From Lama guanicoe (taxonomy: Eukaryota), in contig MU053594.1 in the NCBI GenBank assembly GCA_013239625.1, positions 2,422,127 through 2,486,126 of the forward strand: DNA of 64,000 nt, in the 5' to 3' direction. Positions 25,794 through 50,084 of this stretch are shown one piece after another. The notes beneath the pieces are model-generated. The model did no database searches and was not told the origin of the DNA. It saw only the letters and a program-made list of their open reading frames with translations. The stretch's first letter is position 1, and every line of letters begins with the position of its first letter. The position numbers and the translations under genes are program-made.

Positions 25794-25917
25794 TTACAAA
25801 ACAGGATTTCAGAAATGAAAAGACTTATCTACAGGTTAACATTGCTGTGGAAAAGATGTACTTTTTGGTCAAATGAACCTTTCATGGACTACTGTTAGAG
25901 ATGAGAAACTCATGATT

Positions 25918-26353: not shown

Positions 26354-26359
26354 TTTATT
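26354..26359 (-). terminator. Candidate polyadenylation signal of POU2AF3 (AATAAA)
   Basis: tttatt on the plus strand, about 275 nt downstream of the stop codon, followed on the minus strand by U-rich sequence. Confidence 0.65.
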
Positions 26360-26633
26360 GGTTTAAAAAAAAACTGGAATTTGTTCGTTACACAGAAAAC
26401 TATTGAACGTTCCCTATAAAACCTTTAACGGTAACATACATAGGAGAAGTGGCACTATGACTGCGTGTGAGGACGTCATACTAATGTCTAAATTAGTGTC
26501 AGAACATCGAACATGGTGACCTGTAAACTGTGCCTGTGACATCTGGTTAGTAGGTTGCGTAGATCAAGTCGCCATCTCGAGGTGGTAAAAAAAAGATGCA
26601 AGTTCGCCATGTCCCAAGTTAATGTAATTTCTA

Positions 26634-27005
26634 TTAACTATAGCAGATGTCCCAGTTGGCTCCCCTCTGATAGAAATCACTGGTGGCTGCTGCTGAGGGA
26701 GCGAAGTTCCCATAGTCTGTGCTGGGGTGGGAAAAATACTCTGAAACTCTGAAGGGGTCCAAGTGCTCTGCCTCACAGGAAGCACAGCAGCAGACGGAGG
26801 CGGTGGCAGAGGAGAAGGGGTCGCACTGAGTGTGCGAGGGCAGGTGAGGGTAGGAGCAGTCTTCTGAGGAATAGCCACAGTTCCTGGTGTCCAGAGAAGG
26901 GGGAGAGTTGTAATTCTCCGGAGCATATGAAGGGAGCTGAGCAGGAGAGTAACTGTAGTCTAAGGATCCAGAGAGTGTGGAGGAATCCGAAGACGATCCT
27001 GGGGT
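26634..27005 (-). CDS. POU2AF3: POU2AF3 exon 5 (last coding exon)
   Basis: ttttcatctctctag|ACCCCAGGA...TATAGTTAA; 123 codons plus TAA; TPGSSSDSSTLSGSLDYSYSPAQLPSYAPENY...CCCASCEAEHLD...NWDICYS*. Confidence 0.95.
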   Translation of the reverse strand, partial: TPGSSSDSSTLSGSLDYSYSPAQLPSYAPENYNSPPSLDTRNCGYSSEDCSYPHLPSHTQCDPFSSATASVCCCASCEAEHLDPFRVSEYFSHPSTDYGNFAPSAAATSDFYQRGANWDICYS

Positions 27006-30000
27006 CTAGAGAGATGAAAACCAAGGAACAAAAAAAGCTTGATAACTTAGACAGGATTAAAAGAACTGAATAGAGTGGATTTATGAATGCCGAGTAAGAA
27101 CATTAAGGGAAAAAAAAAAAAAGAAAGAAAGAAAGAAAAAGAAAAGCACAACAAAACACCCAGCCCAAGTCTGCAGAAGTAATTTTAATTGCTGACTGCG
27201 TGATTTCATGACACCACCTTCTGTGTTTACCTATTTCTTTCCCAACAATAAATTGTCTTGCTTCACTGGCTTCCTTTGTTATAAGCATACTTTAGAGGAT
27301 GCTTTGCTCTTAAACCACAAACTCCCATTGTGCTTCAAGTCACCTGCACCTCAAATCCTGCTCTGTGCCACATTATGAGCTGCAGGTGGCACTGTGGATG
27401 TTCCTCCACACCCTTGACTGTGGAGAACAAGGTGAACAGGCACAGGTAGAACCGGGATCTTCACTGAGCCAGCGCCTGGGAGACTCCAAGACTAGAAACT
27501 ACTGCTATGGTCACCAAAGTCTTGTCCCCGGCTTCCTCCTGAGCAGGTCTACAATCGTTACTGAAAAAGCCTACCTTGGAAGCTGGAAGAGAACTGGATG
27601 ATCGGGGCCCTGTATGCACATCCTGTGGGTTTAATTTCCTATCCCCCTAAAATTTAGTCAGATACGTACCCAGACTTTTGACAAACCAAAAGAAAAAAGT
27701 ATTTACATTAGAAAATTCACTTTTTAAGGTTTAAAAATATATATATATATATATGAGTATCTAAAAGACATCTTCAACCATTGGTATCTACTAATGGAAA
27801 TTTTACTCCATTTTAAGTGATAACACATTTTCAGATATTTAAGGTCCATGAAGAACAATGAGTTCAAATGTTTTCAACTATTAGGGATTCATTTCTTTAC
27901 CCACCATCTCAGACCCAAGTAAGTTCTTGTGCTTATATCAGATCAAGACAACTAGTCAGCAGAGCCGATTCAGTGTTAAAGTAAAACCGAAAATACTTTT
28001 ATCAGGTGACAGTTTGTACTGCATCAACACAACCTTAGTTCCATTTTCTAGAACTCAAAAATCCAAGGGCCATTGTTTAAATCACTGATTGCCAGTGAGT
28101 AGATGCCTGAACTTTACAGTTTGAAAACATTAAGTGACTATTGCTGGGAAACCTCTTTTTATTGCCACACACCAACGTACTTGGGAGTAGCCGACTTGGG
28201 AAATCATAATTACGTGTTTTTGCCTTTCAATGTGTGGCTATTTTTAACTCCATTGAGTTTTAAATGGTTCTTTGCTTGTTTCCTGGATGATTTCCTTGTT
28301 GATATGGTTTGTATATCTCACGAGATGATGCAAACTCTCTGCCCGACAGTAAGCAATCATAGGTTTTGTAAAGGACTGAGATAAATTACCAGGCTCTGGT
28401 TAAAGCAGAAAGGGGCAGCCTGGAAGCTGTCTGGGAAATAGTGTGGAGTACTTTGCATGGAATTGAGCGAAGGGTCCGGGTGTGTCTCTGACTGAAGGTA
28501 GGAATCAAAGATCTGGTCGAGGCAGTTTGGGTTTTCTTCACAAGAAACACAACTGGAAAATTCTTGGGGCTGGAAATAATTGGGCGTGGAGGGAACTGGT
28601 TCAGGCTCAAAATACAGTCCTGGAAGAAAAAGGAAAAGAGAGGTTTTTGTTTAACAATTGCACTTACAGATTTGAGTGGAGTTCTACTCTATGTTCTGAT
28701 ATTTACGATACTTAGGGGAAAAGGGGGCTTATGAAGTTCTAAAACCAAAGAAAATAGGCAAGCAATTTGGATTTTTCAGTTGCCTTAGCTAATTCAAGTC
28801 CCCGTGAAATAAACCTAGTTAATTATCTAGAAACTGGCTATAAGGGTGGCTAAGACAAAGGAAAAGAATAGTGATCCGGCCTCTGTCCGACAGTCAAATA
28901 ATAGCTCAAACTTCCACCTTCCACTTTCTGTAAAAGCATCAATGCCCAGCCCCTATCTGCAGTCCCAGTGAACCCCAGCTCTCAGAAGTAACTTCCAGAG
29001 TGGTTTGAGGCTTTAAGAAAACTTCCAAAAGTGAAGGATGGGAAAGAACTCTCTTGACCTAGGGTTAATGCTTTCCTAAACTTTTCACACTTACTCAGTA
29101 ACTTAATTTTTGAGGAATATTATAAATGGCAACGCAAAGCATGAATATGGAGACCGAGAACGCAGAGTACAAGTTAGTACTACTTGTTTCATATTATCAA
29201 AAGCAAGGATGTTATGTCAACCTGATCGTGGAATTAATGCCTGTTGTTAATGTCAAACAGGAATCGTTCTAAACACATGACACCTTTTCCATTTTAAAAT
29301 TAAGAGGCCCCATTTCTGAGTATTACCCTTAAATGCACAAAGAAGACAGGTTTCAAGTATGTCCTTCAGAGGGACGACAGAACACAGGAGGTTTTGAAGT
29401 CTTGAGGCTCCTTTAAGATTTAAGTTAAAGTGGCACGTTCGGTGGGGAGCTCCCAGGAGCACAGGTTTCCTCACATAAGACCTCTTTAATCTCTCAGCTG
29501 TTGAGTGGCATAGGTAGGAGTGTTTATGTAATAGACTTATTTGTAATGGGCTGAGAAAACTTGCACCTGTTGGAACTGCTTTCTGGGAAGAGAGAAAGGA
29601 AAGGGGAAGGAAGCCCCTGTCAGCTGGGAGCTAAAGGAAACCAGAGCCGAGGCATTATTCTAGGGCCTTGGGATGTCTGTATCCATCTAATAGTGCCCTA
29701 ACAAAGATAACAGCTTTCTGAAAACAGGTTTCTGATCTCTTAATCCAGTTTGGTTACCTGGAGGTGAGGACCTGGAACAAAAGTGAAGAGTAAGCTTTGG
29801 GACAGAGCAGACAGTTCCAAAGTGAGGACACAGTTTTGCACTTGTTTCCCTGCTGGGCTAGTGTTTGGAGTCACTATGCCTTTTTTCACCTTCTGATTGG
29901 TTGGATTCCAATTAAATGGTGGTGCCTTTCCTAACCCCTGAATCAAGTACTGAAAGACTCTCGAGATGGACTTCTTGGAAGAGTTTTTGAGGGAATCATC

Positions 30001-33000
30001 GGGTTGGCTGTACTGACCTGCAGGAGATGGTGGGACTGGGTCTGAAAGGTGGACACTGTTGCCTCCGGACAGCTGTCAAAGCGAGAAAATGACCACAAAG
30101 CAAAGTGAAATAAAAGTTCTTTAAAGGGAAAGCTAAGACATTTTGACGTGAACTCTGTTGCCTTCTGCTCTAAGGTAAGCCAGATTTTTTTCTTCTAAAA
30201 ATCCCTTGCTCTTGTGAGATACAACCAATGCTATATTTTATTCAGGTTCAATTTGTAGTTTTGTTTGGGGATTTTCTTCCCCTAATGTCAGAGTCTCCCA
30301 CTTACATTGTAAAGGTTATTAATCTTGATAAAAATGAATTTAAATGGTTTTTACAGTACAGAAATGAACAGTTCAAGAAAACTCTGTAAATAATATAGTG
30401 TTTTATTAAATCATTTAATTTAAAATTAATAAGGACTAACATTTATTTAGTCTCAACTATCTATAACTTAGTCAGTCATTTTCCTCAGAATTTTCATATA
30501 CTATCTGGCGGCTTATAGGCTTAGGAATTTGTTTTCCCCCCAAAAACACAATGCCTAACTTTTTGTTAATCCTGGAGAGCTAAAAATATCCACCTGTTCT
30601 TACTAGCTATGAAATACTGAAACAGAAAATATTTTCATAAAGTTGTTGTCGGTGAACTAGAGCATATCTATGTTTAGTTAGTGGTTGGTAAATACTTCAC
30701 CTCTTTGTAGTTTTTTTTTTTACTGTTTTCTGTAAAAGTTGCTTTTTTCACTACTACAGTTAAATACATCAAGTTTATAAGACTGTTCTTTTTAACTTCA
30801 AAGTAAAGCAGCCTGTACTTTCCGATTAAGTTGATAATTGTACTAACCGAATAATTTTTTTTTTTTTTTTTTAGGTTTTGGGTGGTGGCTTTAAAGTTTA
30901 AAGGGCCCAGCATTGCTGTGAGAGTCTGTCCTGGGAAGCAGCGCTCACCACACCTCTCTCCTGCCTTCCAGGGTACACTCACTCCTGCACGCCGGACCAT
31001 GGGGAGCCTGCAGTCAGCCGCTGCTGGAACGGGAGGTGGTGTTAATTTTGAAAACGATCCATGCTGTAATGTCATGAACCAGGAAGCTGGAATCCTTCAG
31101 CAGCTCTTTATGCAAATATTTGGCTGCAGCCTGAGCTCAAGCACTTGGAAGGAGTGGGTTTTAAAAACTCGGCTTCATTGTAGAGCTTTCATTAAGCCCG
31201 TTCCTCCCCCGAAACGGGCGTTTTAGGCTTCCCAGGTTATCTCCCTCAGGTATGTTTACAATATCTTACTTGATAAAATCTTTCTAGTCCTGGGTTCACT
31301 TTACTTTGCTCCAAGAATACAAAGAAAGAGTCCTGTCTCTTAGGTTTTGAACAGCATAAAAATCCACAATCTACCATTTACAAAAATACATAAAGGCTAT
31401 TTAAAAAATTAATGGTAAAAGAAGAGTAAACTGTATCTTCTGATGTGCACTAACTCAAGTTTCCTTTTACCCTAAAGGTAAAAGAGTTGTGTATGTGTGT
31501 ATAGGTATGTGTGTAGGGCTGTTGGTAAATTGATCTGGCCGAAGTAAGTTTTAAAATCAAATTTCCAAATCTAGCACGCACATGTTTCTGCTGGCACTGT
31601 TTGAGACCCTAATATTTGTTTCAATCTATAACTCCCATTCATGACTGCCTTCTTAAACTTTCAAATTGTGGATACCACTCTGACTTCATAACATACTATG
31701 GTAAATTTCTTCTTGCTTTGTATATTTCATTAAGTCTCTCCTTGGCTTAGAGCTTCCCAGAGACATCCTTCAACCACAGAACAAACTGAAGTTCATCTCT
31801 GTTAAACCAGAAGCAGGCATATACCATCCCCTGCTACCTGCCCTCCATGCCTCCTCATCAGTAGACTTCACAGCTCTCCTAGAATCCCGACTCCTTCTGA
31901 TGGTCCCTGGAGAGGGATTTTACATCTGGCTCTTGTAATTAAATCATCTTTGTGTTACACCTCCGTGCCTGTGTGGACCTGGGTGGATATACTCTTCTAG
32001 GAAGCAAAGTAGGGTCGGCTTTGCTCTGCATGGTCCTGCAAGGAGGCACTGGTTCAGAAGCTCTGCTTATTTCTTACGGGGGAATCCAGATAAACTTAGA
32101 TAAGTCAAACTGCTCCAGGGAACAGATACTGGTCAGATACATGAGTGAAATGTTACACTCTTGCTTTTGTTCCAGCAGCTAGGAAACGGGAACAGTGGCC
32201 AAACCAACCTGTAAGAGGCCAAGAGTATTAAAATTGCCAGTGTGCAAAGGGGACTTCCCCAAGTGCAGCTGGAGCAGAATTCTACCAGGAATCAAAGCTC
32301 CTTAACGAAAGATTACATTTGGTTAGAAACGTCTTGATTTTTTTTTAAATACCACTAGTGTTTGCCAGTTCCCTTGTTTCTGGTTTTATTAATTTTATAA
32401 TAATCTCTGAACTGAAGAGGTCAGTGGTTGAGGCTACCACCCCTGCTCAGCACAGCTGGATCCACAGAAAGATGAATTTAGGGAGCCAATAGGTGGGAAG
32501 TTTTTTTTTTTTTTAATATTAAGACTAAGAAGACCTTGGTTCTACTTTTTGCTCTACCATTAGTAATTACAAAACATTGAACTTCAGCTGTAATAGAGGC
32601 ATACAAATCCCTGGTCTACTTACCTGGCTTGGTTGTTGTAAGAACTAAAAGAAATAGTGTGCAAAAGTGCTTTAAAAGAACCACTGGAAAACCCTCTATA
32701 ACTGGAAGGAAGTTTGATGGTGTTAGCTGAAATTGTACATATGGAGCTATTGACTTTACATCCAGCAAATGTAAACTTTGTGCTGGTGTGAGCTGGCTGT
32801 AATAGGGCAAACTCACACCAGAACTCTAAACTCTGAGCAAAGCGTGTAAATGAACATGACTAACTGGCTTTCAATCCCTGGTTGTAATTTTCTTTTAGCT
32901 GCTTTTCCCAAATAGTAATAATGGCAGCTAACATGGCTCGAGCACTTACTAAGTGGAAAGCACTCTTCTAAGTGCTTATGTGCAATAACTTAATTTAATC

Positions 33001-35994
33001 CTCACAAAATCCCATTGTCTCCAGTTTCAAGATCAGGATAATGAGACATGAGAGACTGAGTAACTTGCTGGAGGAGATACACCATGGAAGAGGTTTGAAC
33101 CCAGTCCACTGGTTCTAGAATCTGTGTTCACCACTCCTACAGCATCTGCCTTTTCCCACAAAGGCCCGTTTCATGAAGTCGGGCTTTGTACACAAACAGC
33201 ACCAGACACAAAAACTGTTATGGGACAGATGCCAAAAAGCTGGAGACAGGACCAACCCTAACACTGGCAATACGAACCCCATCCGCCATATCCGATGTCC
33301 ACACCGAAACCAACCCAAAGGCAACTGCGTGATCAAGGGCTCTCAGCCATGAATCGCTCTCTCTTGGAGGATAACCCCACCTAGTTTATTTGATTCTGCT
33401 TCTGCCCTGAGCCCTCTTGGTAATACTCTCTGTTTTAGGATGTCCAAAAGTGGTAGGGTACCCTTATGACTGCTCAGATCAATCTCGTAATAACCTGGAA
33501 CTGCTTAAGGCTTCATAACATCTTAAGGAGGTGGTTCTATATTCCAAGGTGTCTCCTCTGAGGCTATAGGGCCCCTTTCAGCTGGGGAATTTCAGTGCCT
33601 GGTGATTCACAGATCAATGACCTCGGAGGCTGGATTTCAGAAGAATGAGGAAGGACAGGACATGTTCCATGGAGAGTCTCTCCTTGAAAGGCTCCCTAAC
33701 ATGAAGCTTCTGGGAGAGATTTTCTTTGCATGTGTGAGGGCACATACACTGTCTTCCTACAGAATAGCAGCCTACCTACTGCTGGCTGCTCCTTTCCCTG
33801 CACTGGACCAACACGCCCGTATACTCAACTATGATCAGTGAGGGATGGGATCCCCCAAATCCTGAGCCCCACAACATGCCCCACCTGTTCTTTGTGGCTT
33901 CTGGTGGTGAACTAGGATGAAGGGTGGTGGGTACAGAAATGATAAGAACAGCTGAGGAAGGCCAGGTCGAGGGTGGTGACTGGGGCCTACGGTGGCCCCC
34001 TACACCTTCCCAGACACAGGGCTGAATGAGCTGAACACGAGCTGGGAGGAAGTGAAGGGTTCATGCTTACGGTTCCCCCTGAGGCTGCCTGGTGTGCCCT
34101 TCTCTGCTGCAGCAGCTCCTTCACCGTGATCTTCACCCGGACACCTTGATACACCTTAGGTTTTTCTGGGGAAAGCGAGCTGAGTCAGTGGTCAAGTGTG
34201 AGATCTGGGTCTCAAGCTGGGGTTGTGGGGGTCTTTGTAAATTATGGCACCGAGGCCAGGCCTCTGGGTCTGGATAATGCAAAGAGGCTGCTAAAGGACA
34301 TGTGGGAGAGAAACCCACATTTCTCAAAGTCGAGAGGATGAAAAGAGACTGTGGGCAGGTTTCAGGGCCCAGTGGAAACAGAACATATGGAAGTCTGGGG
34401 CGACGCACCCCAGGCCGGGCCTGAACCCAAGACCAGTACCAGACAGGTTTTTCTGCTCAGGAATGTGGAGGCCAGTCCAGGGGAGCTCACCTCTCGGCTA
34501 AGTTAGGGGAACCCGGGGTTTTGGCCTGGGAGAGGGTGCTATGCACCTGGGGAGGGGCCGGGCGCCGCTGCAGCTGACCTAGCCCACCCCACCCTGGTGG
34601 AAGTTCTGAGGCCCTTTCTTCTCCGCCAGGCCAGACCTGGTTCCTGGGGGAGGCTCAGACCTCTACGTGCCCTGGGTGCGGAATCCAGCCCAGGGGCAAG
34701 CACTGGACAGATGGCGTTTGGCCAGCCTTGTCCTTGGGCCGGTGAGGGGCCCACTAGACTGACCCCAGTAAAGGCACCAGGCCCGAGATCTCCCTCCCTC
34801 CGGTCTCTTTCTTCTGCCTCCTCTCCCTCGCCCCCTTTCTCCGCCTTTCCCGCTCTCCATCTTTCCCTCCTCCCTCCTTGGGCCCGGCTCCTGCTCGCCC
34901 CTCTTCCCGTCTCTCCCCACCCCCTCCCTCTCTGGCGCAGGCTTTTCTCGGCGGCGCCCGGAGACTCCGAGTCGAGTCCGCGCAGCGAGAGCTCCAGGGA
35001 GGTGTGCAGGGCGGCCGAGGACAGCGCTCTCGGCGGGGAGGCCGCCCCCGGAAGGGGCCGCCCCCGGGGCTGGCGGGGCCGGGCTGCCCGGCTCGCGGGA
35101 GAGGCCGGGCGCGCCCCAGGGGTCGGCGGGGAGGGCGTCCTGCGCGCCGGGAGCGGGGGCAGCCGCGGAGCCGCGGTGAGTAGGTCGGGCCGCGCGGGCG
35201 TTCGCGGGCGACGGGGTGGCCGCGGGAGCCCGGCGCGACTCGGGCCCTGACCTCGACCCGGGAGTGAGCGCGGGGGAGCCGCAAGGGGAGGGGCGGGCTG
35301 CGCGATCGCCTGGGCTCCTGGAGCGACAGTGGCGGGCCGCCAGCGCCTCGCCTGGTCACTGCGGAGACCGCAGCAGAACGGCAGGGACCCCCCGGGCCGC
35401 GACCCGGGACCTAGGGATCTCCCCGGGAACGGAGATCGCGCTGCTCGGTGCCCAGACCCAGAGAATCCCGCGCCTGGCCCGCAGGACCCGGGCCGCGCCC
35501 TCTCTCCGCGGTCCAGCGTCTCTCCGCGACTTCCTCGCGGAGCCCACGGCCCCGCGGGCAGCGGGTGCGGCCCCGGATCGCACGGGGGCTGCCACGGCTC
35601 AGCTCCGCGCGGCCGGAGCGCCCGGCTCCCTTCCCGGGCTCACCGTGAGCCTCTAGCTCCCCCCGCCGCCGCCGCCGCTGGGCGCGCAGAGTCCGCGCCG
35701 CGAAGTCCCAGGGTCACAGCTGTGGCCAAGCGAGAGGGGGCTGGTGGACTGGGGTACGCGGACGGCCTCAGCGGCCAACTCGGCCTCTGGGCCTCTGCCC
35801 TCGGGAGCAGGCGCCAAGTGGGAGCGGCCACCGCGTGCCCCGTGCCCTCTCGGGATCCCCCGGCTCAGACTTGCATGCCCTGACTTTGTGCCTCTCTGTT
35901 CCATGCAGGAAAAGACGTGGGAATGCACCTGGATCCAAACGCCCCTCGCCCGCGTGACCCTTCCCCAAGGAGAAGCAGCCGAGTTACCCGACAT
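26634..35994 (-). CDS. POU2AF3: POU class 2 homeobox associating factor 3 (COLCA2 / OCA-T2), complete 5-exon CDS, 252 aa
   Basis: Manual splicing on the minus strand: 7+95+55+230+372 = 759 nt. All introns are GT-AG with consistent phases (1,0,1,0). Protein MSEKPKVYQGVRVKITVKELLQQRRAHQAASGGTLSGGNSVHLSDPVPPSPAGLYFEPEP...DFYQRGANWDICYS* matches the recalled human POU2AF3/COLCA2 along its length. Confidence 0.96.
28390..28619 (-). CDS. POU2AF3: POU2AF3 exon 4
   Basis: ttttcttccag|GACTGTAT...AGCCTG|gtaatt; 230 nt; (G)LYFEPEPVPSTPNYFQPQEFSSCVSCEENPNCLDQIFDSYLQSETHPDPSLNSMQSTPHYFPDSFQAAPFCFNQSL. Confidence 0.95.
30018..30072 (-). CDS. POU2AF3: POU2AF3 exon 3
   Basis: ttttctcgctttgacag|CTGTCC...CCTGCAG|gtcagt; 55 nt; LSGGNSVHLSDPVPPSPA(G). 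Confidence 0.93.
32920..33125. mobile_element. MIR relic in POU2AF3 intron 2
   Basis: gagcacttac...ttctaagtgctt...atttaatcctcaca...tgagtaacttgc...tttgaacccag. Confidence 0.65.
34071..34165 (-). CDS. POU2AF3: POU2AF3 exon 2, OCA (POU-binding) motif
   Basis: ctttccccag|AAAAACCTAAGGTGTATCAAGGTGTCCGGGTGAAG...GGAACC|gtaagc encodes (E)KPKVYQGVRVKITVKELLQQRRAHQAASGGT. YQGVRVK..VKELL is the OCA-B family signature. Confidence 0.97.
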
Positions 35995-36000
35995 CGTGGA
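34900..36000. promoter_or_regulatory. CpG island over POU2AF3 exon 1 / intron 1; probable bidirectional promoter region (COLCA1/COLCA2-type)
   Basis: Very high GC and CpG density with many GC boxes; sits at the 5' end of POU2AF3. Boundaries approximate. Confidence 0.85.
35988..35994 (-). CDS. POU2AF3: POU2AF3 coding exon 1 (ATG TCG G)
   Basis: Minus strand reads tccacgATGTCGG|gtaact: A at -3, GT donor, phase 1. Joined to exon 2 it gives M-S-E-K-P-K. Confidence 0.85.
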
Positions 36001-39000
36001 CAGCAGAGGCTGGGCCGGTGGCTGGATGCTGCAGCTGCAGGGACTCAGCGCCTAGGAGGGGCTCCTGTGCAGGGACAGAAGCAGAGATGCAACATTTTTA
36101 AAGTTTCACAAAGCATCCAGCTGCACCCAGGTTCCTGGAGCAGGAGACAAACAGAATTAATGTTTTATACCTTCGGGTATAGGTTTGAGTTTTTTCCCCC
36201 TCATGCCAAGTATTTAAAACCTCTAGAAACCCATGATTTGACAATCAATGATTGCGCGATACTTTCAATTTGAATATTCAAAGGCTTAACAAAATGGACT
36301 ATCTTCTGCAGAAATCCTGCACACAGGCACCCCACAGAGAGTCCACAGAAACAGGGAGTGAGACCCCTTTGGGTCCTGGCCCTTGCTTTTATGGTATTTT
36401 GAGCATTTTGCCCACCTTCCCCCAGACAGAGCAGGAGTCCTCAAAGATGCTCTGTATTTCTGCCTCAAAGGCAGCTCCGGGAGCCTGGGGTGACTCAGGC
36501 TGCCCTTCGTGACCACCTGAGCCAGGCTAGCAGGGCTGACTGATTCCCACCTCCCCAGTCTCCATTTTAAGGGAAAATCTCTGATTTTAGGGGAGTGAAT
36601 ATGGCAGCTGGTGGGTCTGGCCCTGCAAGGAGTCACTCAGGGCCGCCGGTTGCAGGCCAGAGGCCTGCAGAGGCCTTAGTTCTGCGCCTCGTGTGCTTCC
36701 GGCCCCGCCTGGCCACGTGCTGGCTTCCCTCCCCTTTCTTCCGCTCTCTGCTGGGGCTCCAGACACTGGGGTTTTAGTACAGGATCCCTGCCCACTAAGA
36801 CCCTTTGCTCCTCCCCACGGAGCTGGGGATGCCTGTGGGGCCTCACCCTCTAGCGAGTTTCTGAGGCTGGTGTTTTGTCACTATGAAGTCCCCATTTCTC
36901 TGCTCTTTTTCCCTCTGGAGCCACCCCTGCCTTTTTGCTGCAGGAGCATGTGCTGAGAAAGGTTGGTAAGCTGACTCCTGCTCGTTTTAGCTAAAAGGAT
37001 GTGGATTTGTGTTCAGGCCTTCACACTTTGGATGAGAGGTGGGAGGGGTTTGAGGTCAGGCTGCGCCCTCAGTCCAGGCCTGCACCCCTCACAGATGACC
37101 TGGGATTGTGCTGGGTTATGTCCTCCAAGCACCTGCTGCACCTCTTCTGTATGATTTGGAAGCTTGAGCAGACAGGAGTGGTCCAGAGAGGGAGTGGGTG
37201 CCGGGCCAGATCCTCTCCTGGTCCCCAAGGGCAGGGGCAGCACCAGAAAATGAAGAGGCAGGGCGGGGTTCCCTTCCCAGATAAGCCAAGTCGTTCCCAT
37301 GTTGCCAGGCCAGATGCAGGTGATAGGCCCCTGTTCTTTGTTCCCTGAGTTCTCTGAGATGCAAAAAGTAGAGTTGAGCCCCACATTCAGAAGAATACCT
37401 GAATGCCCTGGAATGTGTCCGATGCAGGATGGAGCACACAGAGACGGGAGAAATGGGCTCTCTGGGAATGCCAGGACACCAGAGTCTCTGACTGATCAGC
37501 ATTGCTTGGCAACTGAAGCCACATCTCTGGATGAGGGGAACAGGGCTGGGAACACTTGAGGTGGCACGTGGCAGGAGATCTGGGGTGTGTTTGTCCCCAG
37601 CCCAGCTGGAATCTGTCAACTTCTGCAGCCTCTTTCTTCAAAGGCACTGGGCCTGTGTCCTGAGTTTCCCTGACAGACCTTAGGACCAGACTCTTGAGGA
37701 GAGGAAGGACTCCGGGAGTTCAGAGAGCCCCTGTGTCCTTTCTCCCTGCCCTGCTGTGCACGGACAGCGCTCCTTCTGAAGGAACAGCGGGCAGAAGAGC
37801 ACAGAATTAAGGAGGGGCTCTTGTTCTCCTAACTTCTTCCATAACTTCTTTACTCTTCTCGCCTCCTTTTTGTTCTATCTTATTTTTTAGTTTGCTTTTA
37901 AAAACCTTCCTCTTTACCCTTTGGCCTTTCTGTTAATTTTTTGCCAGGTTTCTTTCTCTTTCTCTTCTTGTCATTACTTCCCTCCATTTCTCACCTGCAT
38001 TGCTGTTTTTCTTCCCAGCTTTCTACATGTAGTGGGGATGGACAGGGATGGCAGGAGGCCACTGAGTTAGTTCCCTTGACAACATCATTGAAATTGATGC
38101 TGCTGATTGGCTGCCCTTTGGAGAAGGTGGCAGGGCAGGGTGAGAGATGAGCTCCTTAGAAGTCACGGGGTCTGTAGGGACAGCATAGACCTATTTGTCC
38201 CTTCCCTCCAGCAGCCTCTGCCAAACCAGGGCAGCAGTTCTGGGGGCTTCTGTGACAGCCCCCACCACTGGGATGGCTGTTCCAGTGCTGTTGCTAGCCA
38301 GCGGCTTCAGAACCTGTGTTTCCTTAGTCCCGAGCCTTGTTTTGAGAAAGAAGCCCCCCGCCCCCCGCCCAGTTTTTAGCACAACATGAAGGAGTTTGGT
38401 TCCTGCTGTTTGTATAATTGCAAGGCCCCAGCACAGGTATTTAAGAGCCAAATGCCACGCTTGTGGGTATGAGGGCGGATCCTCCTAAACTGCTTTCTGT
38501 GAATCCTCCTTATGGATCTACAAGTGTCATGAGGCCTGAGAGCCCATAGAATGGGATGTTCCTCACAGACTTAAAAGTTTGTCTTTTATTGTTTACTGCA
38601 TGTCAGGTACAGTATTGTATAGCCTCCTCATTTTGCAGATGAGAAAACAGGCTCAGAGGGAAGAGCAGCTGCACCAAGATGACTGCGCACACACATGGCA
38701 GGATTGGGAATCGAATGCCGATAAACCTGATACTAAACCCTTACTCTTAACTGTCATTGTTGTCTTCCTGATCTTTTATAGCGGATGTTTTCAAACATGT
38801 TTTGTTTTTAATGAAGTATAGTCGGTTTACAATGTTGTGCTAATTTCTGGTGTACAGCATAGTGTTTCAGTTATATGTATATATAAAACTTTTTTGACTT
38901 CAACCCACACTAAGAAATTCATTTGACATGTTCACATACTAAATCTATAACAATATTTATATGTTTACAAAGCAAACTTGTCAGGGAACAATGCATACCT

Positions 39001-42000
39001 ATGTACATGAGGCATTCTGAACTGTTCTGTTCCATCTTTTCCATCTCATTCTATTTATGGAGAATTTATGTTGGCTGGGAGTCACTAAGATAATGTAATG
39101 ACCCACTAATGCGTTGCGACTAACATTGGGAAATATTGCCTGTGAGACTTGCAAACCCACTGGTCAGTGTTGTGCTCCGGGACGAGGTGTGCTGGCTACT
39201 CTACTGTTTGGGTGTGTCAGGAGGCTAAGACAGGGCAGCTTACCGATTGGAGGGTGGTCTGTAAACATGGGTCACCGGAACCAAACAGAGAAGAGACTGG
39301 CTGGGGGTGGGGAGCAATTCATTATGCTAATGACAGTTTGTACTTCTCCGACTGGGAACTCTTCTTTCTTGGGGGGGGCATTGTCACTTCCAGGGTGTCT
39401 GCCTATAGTTCCTGATCATCTCTTGGGGGTTTTAATAAAAGTCTGAAAGAAAATATGGGCTTTTAATAGGCTCACTTGCTTCAAACTATCACGTGGAGTT
39501 CTGATTTTGGGATGTTGGGATTTTTGAGGGGCTGAGACAGACTTAGGGTGCTTTTTCCAACATCCCTGTTGGTGGTCGTCTGGTCCAGGCTCCCTCCACT
39601 GCCTGGCTGAGCAGCCAGCCCATCAATGAGTGTGGAGGAAGTGGAAGCTCACTGTTTGTCAGGCAGCCTGTTCCACTGTTGGACGGCTTTGAATAGAATG
39701 ATAACGGTTGAGCCCAAATCCAGTGAGGTCTATTAGTTGAGCACCGTCTACGTCCCAGGCATGGTATCAAGCACCAGGAATACAAAGACAGACAAGCCCT
39801 GCTTTCTGTCACCAACTGCTTGGTGAGAAACACGGAAGACCTGTTCTCCCGCGTCACACCACTGCTCCTCCATCGTGGGTTTGTTTGGTTCATTCATTGG
39901 TTCTTTCATTCATCCATTCAACAAGCAGATACTGCTTATCTGCTCTGACCAGGCCCAGTGCTAAGCCTGAAGAAGTTATCGTGCCCCCTTCCACCCCCAC
40001 CACAAGCCTTTTCTTTTGGGGGTTCACCATCTGTAGTTTCTCTAGTTCTTTGGGTATTATAGTATTTCAGATCTCTGGGCCACTGAGCTCAGAAACCCTT
40101 TCGTTTGTCTTTGACCTTCTTAAAGTTCCTTAACATCAGAATCATGGGAATAGAACTCATTTCCTTTTAAAGCTTTAAACTGAATATTTAAACTGAAATT
40201 TTTTGGCAGGCTTTTGTATGCAAATGACACTGCAGAGCCTTATAATTTTCCCCCAAAGTAGGAGGTTTTATTAAGTTAGACACATTAGACTCATGAATAT
40301 GAAAAGACTTTCAGTATAAGGAAAAAAGGGAGTTTATTCCCTACAAATTTGACTACAGCTCTACATTCTTCTTATTAATGCAAACTTCTTTTGTCATTTT
40401 GACTGGGGGACACTGTTACCAAACCTTGTGGGAAATATCAAGTTCCAAAAATTTGAAGGAAACAAGTACTTACTGGGCGCACTGTGAATGTTTGGTTCGT
40501 ATGAAAATGACTAGGAAAACTATTAGATGATGGCATTTAATGACCTGTGGTAAATCCATCTCCTCCAATAAAACGTATTCAGAGATTTTACTTTAAGAGG
40601 CTTCCCTGGGGAATGAGCACTTGATAGTTGATCGTTTAAATAAGGATGATGCCATCAGATGCTGCTTGAAAAGTCTTTTACTTAAAATATTTCTATTATG
40701 CAAGTTTTAAGGCATACAAAAACATAAGGATTTCTGTGATAAAAGTCTTTGAATATATTATCAAGCTTAAGAAATAAGTGATCTTTCCTTTATGAGTAAA
40801 CTATTAAGACTTAAACTTCTGGATTTTTCTACTCGAGATACTTGATTAGGAGAGGAGGTTAGCAGGAGTGGCTATCAATTTTCCTAATTTGAAGAGCTAA
40901 TTTTTAGATATTATTTGTTTTGTACACATTTTTTCCCCCTTTTGGAACTGGTACTTGGGGTTTTTTTTGTTTTTTGTTGCTATTTTCCTTTTGGCTTGTA
41001 ATATACTGACAATGAAATTGCATATTGCAAATCCACACATGTTATTTATCAGAGATTATGATTAGAGGACACTTTTCTATCAGAGATCAAATATAACACA
41101 GTGTCATCATTTACAAGTAATTACAGAAGATTTTCTTCTTATTTATAACCTGATCTTATTTATTTAACCTGATCTTTGGGAATTCTAATTCCTGATCTAT
41201 TTGTCATAATTGTTTTAATCACACCAGAGGTAATACCAAACATTGACTTTTATTCATAAGACTTCTTAGCAATATATTATAGTTTACGTAGATACTAAGT
41301 GACTATATAAACATTTTTCTGTGCTACTTCAAAGTTTCAGTAATTTTCCTTCTAAAAGACATTTGAAAAGTAAAATGAATCATCATACATATTTTACCAC
41401 TAAAGCTGTCTCCAACTCTCAGGATTTGCAAAAACTATGACTATGTTAAATACTAAACATGCTGAAATCTTTCTTGTGCATCAGAAATGTCACCCACAGT
41501 GTGAGAGTCTAAATAGTTATTCATCTTTGTGGTATAATCTTCACTCAATTTAACAAAGATTTACTGAGCACCTACAGCATGCTGGGCACTAAGCCAGGTG
41601 CTTAGGACACAGAACTGAGACAGCCAGGAGTCCTGCCCTTGATGAGTCTAGTTAGAGAATCTTGTTTTGCCAGGATGTACGGTTTTGCATTTAAGCTCTT
41701 GAACATCAATAGTTATCGAATATAGTGTTTAAGGTGAACAGTGAAATATTGTTTTGACTGAGAGGATACCTTGGATAGAACCCAATGACAGGGCATAAAG
41801 AAAGAGTATCATTTTGTTATGTAACGTAACTTAAACCTTGGACATCAATTGTTATTTTAGTTCATTAAATATAATTGATGCTTTATTTCTTATGAATGTA
41901 TTATTTAGATTTACATATTAAAATGGATCACAAAGATACTAGTAATACCTTTATATATGTATACATATATATGTATGTAAATATATATTCACTATTGGGG

Positions 42001-44830
42001 TGAGTCATTCTTTTCCCTTTGTGGAGTTTTTTGTAGCACACTTTGGAAGCCTTCCCCTACCACAAGAGTGCCATCATGTTGTATTGTTAACTGATAATAT
42101 GGTGCTCATTTAAGAGTATTTATTAAATACACAAGGTAAAGCTATGATTTTTCTCCTCTCATTCTTTGAAGTTTGTGTAACACTGTAAGAGAAATACAGA
42201 CGTTTTCAACCACATACTATCATGTCTGTTTCCAGTGATTTATGGGACGACTGCCTGTATTGTAGCTTTTGCACGGGCAAGCTTTGCTTTCCACCGTTTG
42301 TGGACATGGTCATCTGGGTAGCTTTCTTTAACTCGGACTTGACATCACCATCTCTGCTCATGTTAAACCTTAAAAGACCTGAGAGAGATGGCCGTTTTAA
42401 ACCTGAGCTCTTACCTTTTCTCCGGCTTCCCCAGGAAAGCTGTGAGCCTGAGCAGAGCAGGTTTAAGGAAGGAGCGGGAGAGGAGAATGTGTTTTTTTTT
42501 TTTTAATGCTGGCATTGTGCATTATTACAACAAAGTGCGGTTAGTCCCTGGCAAGCAGTAGGAAATAGAGAGTACTTGAATGAGAAATGAGATAGGGAAA
42601 TAGAATTAATTTCCTTGTCATAAGGTTGTAGTTTGGTTTCACTTTTTAACAAAGTATTGTAAATTCCCAGAACAACAACACAGAACCAAATTAAAATATG
42701 TGCAATGTATGACTGGGATATTGTGCTTCATACCAGAGAAACACACATTGTAATTGACTGTACTTCAATAAACTATATATATACAATGTAGCAACACGTT
42801 GTCCAGCTAAATAGAACTCTTAAAAATCATTTATAGTTTAGAGTTACCAGCACCGCTCCCCACTGCTCCTGCCCCTTTACACCAGAGGACTGGGATGGCT
42901 ACTAGACAGACTATGGACCTATGTATGTCTCCTTTTTTTTTATAAACTAAATTTGTCAAACACTTTGAAAGGGCCTGGATGCTCTGAGAAGAAGGTAGCT
43001 ACCACTGGTTACTGAGCTTTACTTACCTGAGAGCCAGCACATCCTCAGGCTGTGACAAGATGGACACAATAGGTGAGCAGATAGCAACAAACTTAGAGAA
43101 ATAAGCATGCCTACGTTTAGTGTTATAATCAAACAAAAGGTAAAGATATACGAACACGTACGTATGATTTACACAACTCTTAGTGTTGTGTGTCACTTAG
43201 TAACACATTATTATACATTTTATACAACCAGTCTAGAAAAGTGACTTTGCAACTCTTCCTTGTGAAGGCCCCTGAAAGCAGAGAGAGGGCCCGATCTCTT
43301 CTTTCTGATTTGGGGACTGCCATCCAGGTGGTTGTGAGGCTGGATGACGGATGACACTGCAAAGCATCCTAGCAGTCGGGACTAAGGGCTCAAGTCTCAT
43401 CAGACTGAAGACAAGCAGCTCTCTCTCCTCCACGGTAGACGCTGCCCCCTTCCATTGAGGAGCTAATATTGAGCAAAGCCAAGTCAGCCTGTAAAAGGGA
43501 GCCGTGGGAGGGAAGGAGCAGGCAGGGGACCTGGGAGAGTGCAGCCCAGCCCTGCAGACCACCAGTCCTCCTTGGTCTGCTTCTCCAGGGCTGTCCTCCC
43601 TGGAAGGAGCTGAGGGGTGCGAGGAAGCCTCTTATTCAAGTATTCCCTGTGAGCACTCCACAAATTAGGAGTGTGTTTGCTTAACCAGACTATACCCTTG
43701 AAGGCCTGGAAAAGAAAGAATATTAATTACTCACTTCTAAATGTGAATTAATACCCCTGTTTGACTTTCTAGACTCCTATCTAGAGCATGGGACACTGTC
43801 ACAGGGGATGTAATGGAGACTGAATTGAGGGGTTTTGGGGCCTCCAGAAGATGGAGAGAAAAAGACTGGGTCACAGGGGGACTCACGGGGTCAGAAAAAT
43901 GTGATCAAGGGAATAAAGAACATAAGGTGGTATAAAATAAGAGGAAGATCGTGGGTATAACGTCTGAGCCTTGACTCAAGCTTTGCAAAGTCAAAGTGTG
44001 TGCAAGACATTTATGATGGGCTCAGCCTGCAGACAGGCACACTGCTTGGTAGGAATTACTGTGGGAAGTTAATTGGCGAAGGAATCCACACCAATCAAAC
44101 TTACACGAGACAGATTGATGCTTTGGATGTCAGTTTCTTCATTTATACACAGTTAAGAACTATACATTTCTGACCAATGAACAACCAACAAGGTCTTACT
44201 TCAAAGAGAAGAGGCTGTGTGTGTGTACACTTGACAAAATGTCCTTCTCCAAAGCCCCTTTGCTTCTTGGTGTTCTGTGGTCTGTCATTTCTTGCCGACA
44301 GCCCAGTCCTGCTCTCTGTGTTTTCCTTACAAGGCATGCATTCTTACTTGATCGTGGAATGTTCATTTTATTCATGTACTCTGATAACTGTAGGTTTATT
44401 CCATCAGAGAGACAATCTCTAGCTTAATTAAGTCTGCCATTGATCAAAGAAAGCTTTTGGCCTCTGTTGTTTGTTGGATTAGCCTAAGTATTGGACACCC
44501 TGGGCTTTAGGGCAGTCAAAATTATGAATTTATGAAGCTGTAGGGTCCTGACTTCGTCCTATTTTAAAGACAATAAAGCATTTATATGTGGCGCCATATT
44601 TGTTACTTGCAAGTTATTATTTGTTACTTATTATTTGCAAGTTACCGTAAGGAGAGAAATGTATATAGTGCTTCACGCTTTAAAGCCACGTGGTATAAAA
44701 TGAGTTTAGTTTTATATGCTCTAATCTGTATTATAGCCTATACATTCTCTTTCACAGAAGAACACCCACAGTTCAGAACTAAGAAAAATTGGACAGGAAA
44801 ATCGGTATGTTTTATGATCTGCGTAAAGTT

Positions 44831-44836
44831 TTTAAT
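44831..44836 (-). terminator. Candidate polyadenylation signal of POU2AF2 (ATTAAA)
   Basis: tttaat on the plus strand, about 310 nt after the stop. A GU-rich tract (tgtgggtgttcttctgtg) follows downstream on the minus strand. Confidence 0.5.
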
Positions 44837-45145
44837 GTAGTTTAAGATAAAAATATCAGTGCTAAAATGATAGGTACTTGAAAGCAAACAGAAGATTCAG
44901 AATGCAGTGACTTACTAAGCTTCCCCAGAGATCTTACTGTCAGGTTTTCTAGCTAGAATTTACATTGTGGTGTGTTTCAGTGGAGGGATGGTGGGGAGAA
45001 TCCCAAATAAAGGCCACCATCCATTAACAAAAGGCAGCGTGATGGCTTATCCTGAAAATCCCATTTTCGCCAAGCGGCCACACCACAACAATCCGTGAAT
45101 ACAGAAACCAACTTAAAGAAATGCACAGAAGTCCTCTGGTGCCCT

Positions 45146-45547
45146 TCAGTAAGCTCTGCGGCACTCGTACGCCCCCCAGGTCAGGCTTCCATCTTCTTTG
45201 GTCCATGGAGAAGGGTCCTGGAGGGCAGAGGTGTCTGCCCCCTCGTCTGGGGAGAAGGGCCCCACCTTGGGTGGTGGGTCATTGGACATCGTCATGAAAG
45301 AGGTGAAGGGGTAGGGGGCCGGGGTGGGGTACCCCTGCGTGTGGTACAGATCCTCCAGTGCGTGCAGTGAGTAGGGCTGAACCCCAGCCAGGGGGGCCCC
45401 CCAGCTCGAGCTCCGGTGCTGGGCGGTGCTCCCCAACTCCAGCTGGGAGAGGCAGCTCGTGCTGGGGGCCAGGCTCTGCAGGGCGTCGGCTGGCACGGGG
45501 TCTGGCTGGCTGAGGCCTTCCGGCACTGTCTGTTCCCACGAGTCCCT
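45146..45547 (-). CDS. POU2AF2: POU2AF2 last coding exon
   Basis: ctttccatcctcctcag|AGGGACTCGTGG...; RDSWEQTVPEGLSQPDP...YECRRAY*; overlaps ORF-track 45146..45526. Confidence 0.95.
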   Translation of the reverse strand, partial: RDSWEQTVPEGLSQPDPVPADALQSLAPSTSCLSQLELGSTAQHRSSSWGAPLAGVQPYSLHALEDLYHTQGYPTPAPYPFTSFMTMSNDPPPKVGPFSPDEGADTSALQDPSPWTKEDGSLTWGAYECRRAY

Positions 45548-48500
45548 CTGAGGAGGATGGAAAGATCACTGAGGTTAGTCATCAGGTGGCAGTCTGATGG
45601 GGACAGATTTCCTTCCCAACGTGGGGTGCTGCTGGCCCATGGTTTCTAGAGCAGACTGGGTGTCCTCCCTCTGCTGTCCGAAGCCTCCTTGCCAGGCAGC
45701 TTTCCCCTCTGGTGTGTGAAGTGAAAGTTTTAGTTCCTGTCTTAATTTAGAATTAGATTTATCTCTATCTCTCCATGTCTACCTACCTACCTACCTACCT
45801 ATCGAGTCCATTCCCTAGAAGACAATATTAAATGAATAAAACGTGAAAATAATAAACCGAACATTTAGACGGCATTTCATCATTCACTCCTGGAAGGGGT
45901 AAGCCTCTAAACTGCTCAGTGGGCTTCTAAGCCAACTAGGAAGGCTACCCTGCCCTCAGTGAGCAGAGGTAGGAGCCTCGCAGGCTGGGAGCTGGGAAGA
46001 TTTGGGCTTGGTTCATGGCTGGGCCACTTACCGCCTTTCTGACTCTGAGTACCTCAGTTTGTTCATCTGTAAAATGGGGCTTTAGTAACTATATCCTTAA
46101 TTGTTGCAAATATTAAATGAGCATATAAGTTACGGCTGGCGTAGATACTCAGTAATGTTAATTACCACTCTCCCAAGTCCTGTTTTGTCTAAAATCCCAT
46201 CTTCAGAGATTCATTCCTTTGTGGTTAAGGGCTTTACAGTTTTGTATAAGAAAGTTATTAGTATTCTTCTTTATGAACTCACCTCACGAAAGACTGAGAG
46301 AGAACAAGAAGAGGTTAGAAAACTGAGGGGTCCTGAGGGAGGTTAGGGGGTCGGAGGAGAGAGGCATCCAGATGCACCTGCCCTGGCTGACAGTCTAGCT
46401 GTGTCTGAGAGGTGACTTCATGGTTCTTCCTTTACGTGCAGGACGAGAGATGGGGAAGCATCTGGTAACATCGTTAGCGTACTAATAAAATGGATATAAA
46501 TCCTATTTGATTAGTCGTCCCCGCCTACACGTCTGGCTCGAGCCTCCTGCGGCCTTGGCGGGCACGGATCTTCCAGGAAGGCTCCCCGGGCGAGGGTCCC
46601 GGCGGAGCGGCGGGTCCTGCCACCTCCGGGGCAGCGCGAGCCGCCGCGGGGGTCTCCAGGGCAGGCACCCTCGGCCTCGGCCCGGCTGGCTGCCGGGGGA
46701 GCCCCGATCTCAGTCACCGCACCCCAGCCCCACACCAAGCCTCCGCCTCCTCTCTCACCAGCACGAAGTGCGCGGACTCGCCGGGGAAGGGCGGCGGCAG
46801 CAGCGGCGGCAGGGCCGAGGCGCCGAACAGGGCGCCGCCGCCGGGGCTCAGGGCGGCGGGCCGGTGGTCCCCGCAGGGCTCCGGGAAGCCGGGGTCCAGG
46901 AGCGCCGCGTGGCCCTGCCCTGCCGCGGGCTCGCAGGCGAAGGGCTTCGCCACGCCCGGGCTGCAGGCGTCGCTGGCAAACTGCTTAGTGCTGTGGAAGT
47001 CCGAGTCCGACAGGAAGGACCTCCGGACGCCGTAGTAACCGGACATCACCGGCGAACCTGCTGCCAGGGGAAAGACACAGCGGCCAGGACTTCCTCAGAG
47101 GAGCTCAAGGCGGCTCTGCTGCAGCCGAGCCCCTCCACGTGTGAAACGGCGTATCTAACGCAGGCCCGACTCCGAGGCCAACGGATAAATAGATGCATGT
47201 CTGGAGGAGCGTTAAATACAGCGACGTTACCTCCTTGACCTGCGCCAGCCCCAATAACTGACAGGTTTAAAGCCTGCTCTGCCTTTGAGATGAGTTCACT
47301 TTAGAAGATGCACTAGCTGTTCAGCCAGTCTCAGACTTGTACTTTTGCTGTGCACTTTCTCTGTGCCAGAAGGAACTGGGCTTAAAGAGATACAATATGA
47401 ATCCCTTAGCATTTACATTTTATTTAACGAAGCATCTTTTTCACAGTTTCTGAGTTCTGACCCCACAGACGTAGGACCGTTAACAAGAGGCTGCGTCTGG
47501 GACATGGTATCTGAGATTCGGTATCTCTAGGTAAGGTGAGACTGTGACCTCACCCCAAATCAGAGGCAGATTGTATTCTTCTATTTCTTTGTATACTGAC
47601 CTTTAACACCGTGTCTTGTACCTCGCAGGCACCAGAAATGGTCTGCTTGCTTTGTTTCTGTGAATCCACGTTTGAGGATCACAGAAAATGTGTTTTCTGG
47701 CTATGATGAGTCTGGTGTTGTTTGATGCCCTCTCGTGGCCATACCGGGTCCCTCACTCAGCTCACCTGGACACTGCAAGCTTGAGAAAGAGATGCCTGGC
47801 ACAGAAAGTTCCCTGGGGTGGAAACCGGGGGATGAAACTGGAAAGAATCTCATTGAGGGCAAAGCCAGTGAAACAGTCCCAGAGGAGAAGAGATGTGTTT
47901 TCTAAGACTTTCTGAGTCCGTAGTTCAGTTGTAGCGGGAAACCCTTCATCATTTAGAACATGTTCAGGGGCGTAGACTCAAGGTCTGTGAAACTGATTTT
48001 TTCAGACCTGGTGGTAGGTGTGGCTTACACCCTGAGGTCGCAAAAACGAGGCTGAGCTGGGAGGAAGACTCAGGTGCTTTTCCTTCTCACCTTCCCCTAA
48101 CCACCGTGGACCACTTCTGAGCTTTGTCCTTGCCCACCCTGCCCACTTGTCCTCAGGGAGAGGAGACAGACTCATTAAGATCATTTTTGTTATCCCGACT
48201 CACTGGCACATTACTCTACACACACAGCACTTTGGCTCCTGCCACCTGATGTGGCACTTCGTGTGGTGCTCACGACTTTCTCACCTGAGTTACAGCCCTC
48301 TTTTCAGCCAACCTGCAGGCTCCATGGGGCACAGCTTGTGTCTTACACATTTTCTGTAAGCCCAGTAGTGTAATACTGTGGTCAACAGTTACATGTAAAT
48401 GTATTCATTCATTCAGAGAAAATTAAAATTCCTCGTGGATATTTACCGCACAATTCTACCCACTCCACTTTCATCTAAAATCCTATAACCCCCAACTGCT

Positions 48501-49543
48501 CATGAATTTGAAATCTGTAGTTAGAGGTTTCATCATAAGCATATTCCTCTAGAAAAAAAAATCTGTGCAAGTGAAAATTAATATCAATAAATAAGGTTTT
48601 GTTTCACACCACAAATTTATAGCCACAACAGTGGTTAAGGCTGAGAACAGAATGAAGAATAAGTAAACAAGTCTTCCAGGATCTCATGTCTGCATTTCCA
48701 ATTTCCAAGTTAAAAAACACAAAGAAAAAAAAAACCCTTCTGCTCTCTTAAGCGTGTCTTTTTCTCTTTAAAAGGAGGAAGAGATGGTAAGAGAAGCTGC
48801 GGAATTTTCTTCTTTAGAAGGGAGCAGATACAACCAGGTTCCAGCGACAAAGTACAGTTGAGAAACACAGCATAGAGACATTTAGATACGTGGCATCTTC
48901 TCGTGCTTTTATTCCTTTCCCTTATCCGGCTCTGAAAATGATCAAACTTACTGAGAAAGCCTATGCTATTTCTGAGTTTGAGACCTGAAAGGAATGTGTG
49001 TGTATGTGCGCGCGCGTGCATACATGTATGAGAGTGCTCCAAACTATTATTAAGAATGCTCTTTTTCCATCCCTATAGGAGTATTTAATGAGACATATGT
49101 ATTAAAATGAATGTAAGATGGTTAACTAAGTGCCTGGCATATAGAAAGCACCAATAAATGGTAGTTCCTCCATCTGCCCACAGATCTCTCTCTGTTTGTT
49201 CTAAAGCCAGTGCATAGTCTATCAGGCCATAGGGATAGAATTTTAGACTTTTTAAATGGTATCAAGGATCTAATGCTATTACTTCTGCCCAGTAAACTTA
49301 CACTAGATAGAATGCATTCTAAATTCGAAAATGACTGAGTGAGGTCTGCCTTCCCTGATTTTATATTTAAAAAATAAATATTTTAAAGCAACAAAATTTT
49401 GAAAGTGCTGTAAGGCAGCTATGAAATAATGGAAACCAAAATGCCTGATTTAAATTCAAAAGGGAGGGAGGTGATTGCCCCTTGAGGGGCGGTAACTCAC
49501 CTGGCATCGGGACGAATGGAGACTGAGAGGAACTGACACTGCC
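45146..49543 (-). CDS. POU2AF2: POU class 2 homeobox associating factor 2 (C11orf53 / OCA-T1), 3' three coding exons (5'-partial, 247 aa in window)
   Basis: Spliced 43+299+402 nt gives GSVSSSQSPFVPMPGSPVMSGYYGVRRSFLSDSDFH...WTKEDGSLTWGAYECRRAY*, matching the recalled human C11orf53. The upstream OCA-motif exon was not found in the window. Confidence 0.95.
45778..45801. repeat. (CCTA)n microsatellite in a POU2AF2 intron
   Basis: tctacctacctacctacctaccta. Confidence 0.85.
46510..47230. promoter_or_regulatory. Intragenic CpG island over the POU2AF2 penultimate exon
   Basis: Dense CpG/GC block extending into both flanking introns, within otherwise AT-rich sequence. Confidence 0.75.
46759..47057 (-). 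CDS. POU2AF2: POU2AF2 penultimate coding exon
   Basis: ctttcccctggcagcag|GTTCGCCG...GTGCTG|gtgaga; 299 nt; overlaps ORF-track 46714..47049 (SGYYGVRRSFLSDSDFH...PGESAHFVL). Confidence 0.95.
49501..49543 (-). CDS. POU2AF2: POU2AF2 small internal exon (GSVSSSQSPFVPMP-G)
   Basis: ccccctctgtcttccag|GGCAGTGTC...ATGCCAG|gtgagt; 43 nt; phase 0 to 1. Confidence 0.92.
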
Positions 49544-50084
49544 CTGGAAGACAGAGGGGGCACGAATGTTTTCTTCTTTAGTTGCAAGGTTGAATTAAAA
49601 AAAAGATTAAATATACATTTTACAAGCTTTATTTTCTGATTCTAAGAAATATTTGGGGAGAGGTTAGTTTTGGGGGAGCAGTCAACTGAGAGTTAAAAAA
49701 GCAAGTACTAAGAGAACAAACTTTTACAAGGGACAAAGAGAAACCAAAGTTTTAGATTCTGGTAAATATGCTAAAAAGCCCAGGCTACATGAAATGAAAT
49801 AATTTACCCTATTTTTTTACTGTCCATGTTAATATCCCTCATCAAGTATATATCAACGATTTACAAACATCCATCCATCCATATGCACAGAAATATGGTT
49901 GTTTGGCTTCAACATTCAATGGCTACTTTTTAAATTGTCCATCTCCACATAGAGTGGAAGCTTGACCGTGACTCGTCCTCAGTGTCATGAAGAGAACATG
50001 ATTCATGGTAAACACAATAAAAATATGTGAGAGAAAGAGACAGCCCTCAAAGAACCCGCAGTTTCATGAGCATGGAAGGTTGAG

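Follow-up and report, generated by a model that had tools for sequence, protein, structure and literature searches.

Tandem POU2AF3 (OCA-T2) and POU2AF2 (OCA-T1) genes on one strand of a Lama guanicoe contig

The 64-kb stretch of Lama guanicoe DNA analysed here, to which we refer as the window, carries on its minus strand a complete five-exon POU2AF3 gene (OCA-T2), which extends from 35994 to 26634 and codes for 252 amino acids (aa), and also the three coding exons at the 3' end of POU2AF2 (OCA-T1), which extend from 49543 to 45146 and code for 247 aa and the stop. The two genes are adjacent on one strand with POU2AF2 directly upstream, and the distance from the POU2AF2 stop to the POU2AF3 start is 9.2 kb. 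The six introns across both genes are all GT-AG and are all in frame. A preliminary description of this DNA had placed tandem, spliced OCA-T2 and OCA-T1 genes on the same strand, and the exon models, the orthology, and the Pfam matches agree on this. The exons and the signal that follows them are given below, with lengths in nucleotides (nt).

35988..35994, minus strand: first coding exon piece of POU2AF3, 7 nt, start codon at 35994 and donor at 35988; in-frame stop 57 nt upstream; start common to 24 of 94 homologs
34071..34165, minus strand: POU2AF3 coding exon 2, 95 nt, OCA peptide; 31/31 to PDB 9PFN chain B
30018..30072, minus strand: POU2AF3 coding exon 3, 55 nt; GT-AG; exact match to both alpaca records
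28390..28619, minus strand: POU2AF3 coding exon 4, 230 nt; GT-AG; exact match to both alpaca records
26634..27005, minus strand: last coding exon of POU2AF3, 372 nt including the stop; 100% to Vicugna pacos proteins, 98% to Camelus
26354..26359, minus strand: candidate poly(A) signal, the first AATAAA past the POU2AF3 stop (275 nt downstream), from sequence only
49501..49543, minus strand: POU2AF2 coding exon, 43 nt, whose Met would start a motif-less form of 235 aa; exact match to alpaca protein residues 87-101
46759..47057, minus strand: POU2AF2 coding exon, 299 nt, inside a CpG island at 46201-47400; PF17721 E-value (E) 7.9e-46
45146..45547, minus strand: last coding exon of POU2AF2, 402 nt including the stop; PF17721 E 3.4e-60; 100% to alpaca protein

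When joined, the POU2AF3 exons make up 759 nt and give 252 aa and the stop that ends at 26634. The introns between them are 1822, 3998, 1398, and 1384 nt long with phases 1-0-1-0, and each of the four junctions that had been put forward earlier, namely, 35988/34165, 34071/30072, 30018/28619, and 28390/27005, is a GT-AG pair on the minus strand and is in frame. It had also been claimed that the OCA peptide lies in a 95-nt exon after a 7-nt coding exon and is invisible to the calling of open reading frames (ORFs). This was borne out by a check of the frames: the peptide is at about 34151-34110, and an ATG-based ORF scan misses the exon because this frame has no ATG between the upstream stop and the motif. 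The wider statement that the two genes are largely hidden from the ORF track is true of the small 5' exons but not of the large exons of both genes, which are stop-to-stop ORFs of 97-139 aa.

The peptide of the 95-nt exon is identical in all 31 residues to the crystallised human POU2AF3 chain in PDB 9PFN, and it matches the OCA-T1 peptide (9PFP) with an E of 4e-5 and the OCA-B peptide (1CQT) with an E of 7e-5. A six-frame search of the window with the published pattern of the OCA family (PMC9576728) gave one match, in exon 34165-34071. When six exon translations were scanned against Pfam, one matched PF09310, two matched PF17721, and three had no match. The residues that contact DNA or POU2F3, that is, V11, V17, K18, L20, L21, R24, and R25, are all present in the model at their published numbers (PMC12755459), and they fall at these numbers only if the 7-nt first exon is included. 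The known system that is closest is POU2AF3, also named OCA-T2 or COLCA2 (PDB 9PFN and 9PFO), whose Camelus bactrianus protein XP_074212977.1 has the same start, the same OCA peptide, and 252 aa, and differs from the protein of the window only by scattered substitutions in the C-terminal part. POU2AF1 (OCA-B or OBF-1; PF09310; PDB 1CQT chain I) shares the OCA peptide, and its mode of binding is the same according to PMC12755459.

Over the whole protein, POU2AF3 of the window is identical at 245 of 252 positions to Bactrian camel, 212 of 252 to pig, 200 of 251 to gorilla, and 166 of 250 to rat. The last POU2AF3 exon, used as a query, gave 94 homologous proteins, a set that holds proteins of at least 217 aa and excludes shorter ones, and at the top were two Vicugna pacos records with 100% identity followed by Camelus with 98%. 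Among 25 full-length orthologs that were picked for the short start, the mean column identity was 79% and 27 of the first 29 residues were invariant. Two other conserved places were seen in this protein: a cluster of Cys at residues about 201-209 within the variable activation region, in which C201, C203, and C206 are nearly invariant, and the last five residues, in which D248, Y251, and S252 are invariant.

The three POU2AF2 exons in the window cover residues 41-288 of human POU2AF2 (OCA-T1 or C11orf53; PF17721; NP_940900.2, 288 aa). The counterpart of the first about 40 human residues, which include the OCA motif, is outside the window, and no OCA-T1 motif exon was found in 49544-64000; the alpaca POU2AF2 protein carries the motif. 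The PF17721 matches score 157.7 and 204.7 bits against a cut-off of 25 and together take up profile positions 1-233. This part of POU2AF2 is identical at 188 of 247 positions to human and at 208 of 247 to sheep, and its last exon as a query gave 61 proteins of 234 aa or more with Vicugna pacos at the top (100%). At the 299-nt exon there is a tandem CAGCAG acceptor (47060-47057, minus strand), the first AG of which would add one residue. The probability that either gene is a pseudogene or a match by chance is negligible, because the eight exons are without a stop or frameshift, the splice sites are canonical, and the identity to orthologs is 66-97%.

Six short candidates with an ATG and a donor are present in 45100-34166 and just one of them, ATG 35994, gives the conserved start. 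It is the first usable ATG of its exon because of the in-frame stop upstream of it. Among the 94 POU2AF3 homologs, 24 have the short start, 49 carry the motif at a greater distance from the N-terminus, and 21 are without the motif, and any other N-terminus recurs in at most three as against 24 for the short start. Proteins with the short start also come from two Logan contigs, and the size of these contigs, about 1.1-1.4 kb, suggests that they are probably spliced transcripts. Among 24 sequencing runs listed for this DNA, 18 contain part of 26300-36200, and seven of these are recorded as RNA; neither the runs nor their sample labels, four of which name the reproductive system, are counted here as evidence for the splices. 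Truncated forms of POU2AF3 exist as well, such as the 154-aa form that makes up 7 of 15 proteins listed for a primate cluster.

We are nearly certain that the window holds intact one-to-one orthologs of POU2AF3 and POU2AF2 of a South American camelid, alpaca or a close relative, which lie in tandem after an old duplication, and that the main OCA-T2 protein is the 252-aa form from ATG 35994; the coactivator mechanism would be like that in human and mouse. Some points weigh against this. The lone 31-aa exon matches PF09310 with 25.1 bits (E 1.2e-5), which is under the curated cut-off of 25.7. The 35988/34165 splice is a prediction from homology, and seven of nine named camelid records use other N-termini. 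The donors of POU2AF3 exons 1 and 2 score 2.5 and -0.1 compared to 3.0-8.1 for the other four donors, by a rough weight table. That the camelid proteins bind POU2F3 on octamer DNA and activate transcription would follow by analogy from the identity of the peptide and from PMC9576728 and PMC12755459, and a tuft-cell role is carried over from human and mouse. Lastly, the window does not show the full POU2AF cluster, since the OCA-T1 motif exon and POU2AF1 are outside it.

Two more features bear on where the OCA-T2 protein begins.

34601..36100, no strand: CpG island that overlaps exon 1 and intron 1 of POU2AF3; GC 0.73, CpG observed/expected 0.79
34764..34860, minus strand: candidate for another first coding exon, with ATG 34860 and phase-1 donor 34764, which would put 32 more residues before the OCA exon; from sequence

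If the main camelid OCA-T2 were to use this first exon in the CpG island, either alone or beside the 252-aa form, it would have a basic extension of 32 residues and a length of 282 aa. Of the 10 intron-1 donors scoring above 1, donor 34764 alone can be joined in phase 1 to an ATG in the right frame, the models of gorilla, snub-nosed monkey, marmoset, and blue whale appear to take their first exon from the 34764-34860 region, and the interaction domain is carried by two of six human colon transcripts (bioRxiv 10.1101/2023.08.24.554659). However, the frame of this region differs from that in the primate and whale models and thus the extension is not conserved as protein, the donor is weak (1.2), and, as stated above, no N-terminus other than the short start is found in more than three of the 94 homologs. 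We consider this start unlikely as the main one, and the extension and the 252-aa form can coexist.

Upstream of the POU2AF3 start there are two out-of-frame ATGs, 36116 and 36095 (minus strand), that open a frame of 23 codons which stops before the start. Similar peptides, in differing frames, begin the armadillo, otter, and loris models, and the DNA around these ATGs is therefore conserved; if transcribed, the frame is a possible upstream ORF. Acceptor-like sites with pyrimidine tracts are present at 36064 and 36134 (minus strand), also upstream of the start. The alpaca model XP_031531380.1 uses acceptor 36064 from an exon at about 37216-37133, and given this use the 7-nt coding exon may be internal in some transcripts.

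By what has been found in human and mouse, the N-terminal OCA peptide of the protein that starts at ATG 35994 would run along octamer DNA with its helix docked on the POU-specific domain of POU2F3 or of another class 2 POU factor, and the C-terminal part, rich in Ser and Pro, would activate transcription. POU2F3 is bound through the OCA motif, and a GAL4 reporter is activated by aa 26-251, the C-terminal part (PMC9576728). In the crystals the OCA-T2 peptide is coiled where it touches the octamer DNA and helical where it touches the POU-specific domain, and adenine at position 5 is needed (PMC12755459). Transcripts that skip the OCA exon or start after it would give short forms that do not bind. 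Motif-less short isoforms of both genes tune the number of tuft cells in mouse (bioRxiv 10.1101/2022.10.19.512785), and the Met in the 43-nt POU2AF2 exon of the window would start an OCA-T1 of this kind. In human sarcomas EWSR1 is fused to POU2AF3 exon 2 (PMC11932835), and an element in the 3' untranslated region of human POU2AF2 has been described (PMC12781889).

The preliminary description gave both OCA genes a role in tuft cells. The binding of POU2F3 is known from crystals, but the tuft label of OCA-T2 is borrowed from human and mouse, and the loss of Pou2af3 in mouse spared the colonic tuft cells. In the knockout these cells were not reduced and males were infertile, and the expression of Pou2af3 was diffuse in mouse goblet cells (bioRxiv 10.1101/2023.08.24.554659); in mouse small-intestinal tuft cells it was low (bioRxiv 10.1101/2022.10.19.512785). 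Among the top 15 literature matches listed for POU2AF3 and infertility, none named the gene. These mouse results are in line with a camelid OCA-T2 whose main place of action is not the tuft cell but, for example, the male reproductive tract or the goblet cell, and whose partner is a different class 2 POU factor. On the other hand, OCA-T2 binds POU2F3 in crystals (PMC12755459), and a tuft-like cancer line depends on it (PMC9576728). Work mainly outside tuft cells is a real possibility although we do not favor it, and it concerns the tissue and not the identity of the gene or the molecular mechanism.

In both POU2AF2 and POU2AF3 the phases of the last three introns are 0, 1, and 0, where the first of the three in POU2AF2 is deduced from the 43-nt exon, which starts in phase 0, and these common phases are as expected after a tandem duplication. 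Because the phases are shared, splices from one gene to the other stay in frame. Read-through from the phase-1 donor 49501 to the phase-1 acceptor 34165 would thus give one protein with the OCA-T1 peptide followed by all of OCA-T2, and such a protein, if functional, conserved, and regulated, would be a bivalent coactivator bridging two POU2F3-octamer sites and a third, unrecognised coactivator from the locus. Two OCA motifs were present in one of the 202 proteins compared, and its 15-member cluster holds four such records, which are RefSeq models of Zalophus californianus and Callorhinus ursinus (XP_027436945.1, XP_027436946.1, XP_025749134.2, and XP_073759817.1). These eared-seal proteins are automated models, and in them the exon with the OCA-T1 motif is spliced to DNA that shortly precedes the start of OCA-T2. 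A junction of the seal type was looked for in the window and was rejected, as the best upstream acceptor, 36064, is 70 nt off and in the wrong frame, and the start is preceded at 57 nt by a stop in its frame. No paper on read-through transcripts naming POU2AF2 or POU2AF3 was among the literature matches listed, the top 15 of 365 and the top 15 of 43. The evidence for such a protein comes from the automated seal models and not from the species of the window, and we regard a functional, conserved, and regulated read-through protein as very unlikely.

POU2AF1 is the paralog that acts as the B-cell coactivator of POU2F1 and POU2F2. It was not found in the window by PF09310, which matched none of the 57 ORFs of at least 90 aa in 1-26000, and it probably lies beyond the left edge. 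The octamer to which these coactivators are linked is frequent here, as the following sites are perfect matches.

793, 1535, 1587, 5960, 8703, 11394, 11451, 17052, 31110, 40218, and 51065: octamers

These 11 octamers compare to 3.0 +/- 1.9 in 100 dinucleotide shuffles, none of which reached 11, and to 2.5-3.3 expected by Markov models of orders 1-4; 24 of 14,113 comparable 8-mers reach 11, and the enrichment is relative to shuffles and models made from the window and not to a genome-wide baseline. Three octamers fall within 793-1594, where they may mark an enhancer located between POU2AF3 and the position expected for POU2AF1. An earlier paper has proposed that POU2F3 and POU2AF2 bind at these genes and form a feedback loop (bioRxiv 10.1101/2023.08.24.554659); no statement of this kind was present in passages of PMC10920751.

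Three repeats, each about 700 bp long and 79-84% identical to one another, are at 10661-11398, 12528-13271, and 20620-21454. Their frames resemble LINE-1 ORF2, and two of the octamer sites lie inside a repeat that we take to be a LINE-1 fragment. The Pfam scan of the ORFs of at least 90 aa in 1-26000 gave no match for these repeats. A dispersed family of about 100 bp is at 2419-2552, 22331-22459, 24126-24257, and 25681-26068. The sole match among the 57 ORFs was a weak one to rve_3 (integrase core) at 3906-4340 on the minus strand (E 7.4e-4, 19.7 bits against a cut-off of 26.5), which may be due to chance or to a piece of a decayed long terminal repeat element. Rfam had no matches in 27000-64000, and the tandem repeats in the window, 18 rows, are just simple repeats.

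Both genes, the motif, the mechanism, and the crystal structure are already published, and both genes are named in alpaca, whose records show single differences from the window in those 5' parts that are not conserved. The value that the preliminary description saw in a full-length camelid gene model is reduced because the same 252-aa model is already public as XP_074212977.1, with 245 of 252 residues identical, and the start is the one in 24 of the 94 homologs. Among the matches listed there are nine named camelid POU2AF3 records. One of these, the 252-aa Camelus bactrianus record just mentioned, is the same model; one, Camelus dromedarius KAB1255042.1, is without the OCA exon; and seven have this exon behind a longer or partial N-terminus, of which three begin at the same ATG and read through the donor. 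Thus, the concern that automated annotation might truncate the gene was justified for the alpaca records in that they are faulty, but the error is mostly one of extension (seven of nine) and not of truncation (one of nine). The alpaca records XP_031531380.1 (360 aa) and XP_072809919.1 (668 aa, 'low quality') both keep the OCA exon and have a long N-terminus that looks wrong.

The long N-termini of XP_072809919.1 and of three other camelid models map to the CpG island at 34601-36100, and by their sequence its GC-rich open frames are what became false N-termini in the alpaca and camel models. That the long alpaca proteins of 360 or 668 aa are true is highly improbable. They are RefSeq records, and XP_031531380.1 shares donor 35988 and has a plausible acceptor, 36064. 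However, the two models are at odds with one another and with every camel model, and their N-terminal extensions are translations of the GC-rich island. In addition, XP_072809919.1 is flagged as low quality and would need frame changes at 35857/35855 and 35709/35707 in the window, and the first Met of XP_031531380.1 is unmatched in the window, the exact match being from residue 2. The alpaca POU2AF2 record, XP_031531381.1, omits about 46 residues that the 299-nt exon encodes in the window.

No study combining POU2AF2 or POU2AF3 with alpaca or camel as the study species was among the 20 literature matches listed. The model described here would correct two alpaca OCA-T2 records with false long N-termini and one OCA-T1 record that lacks those about 46 residues. 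Such corrected models would matter for cloning and for work on tuft cells, parasite immunity, and male fertility in camelids, and little beyond curation.

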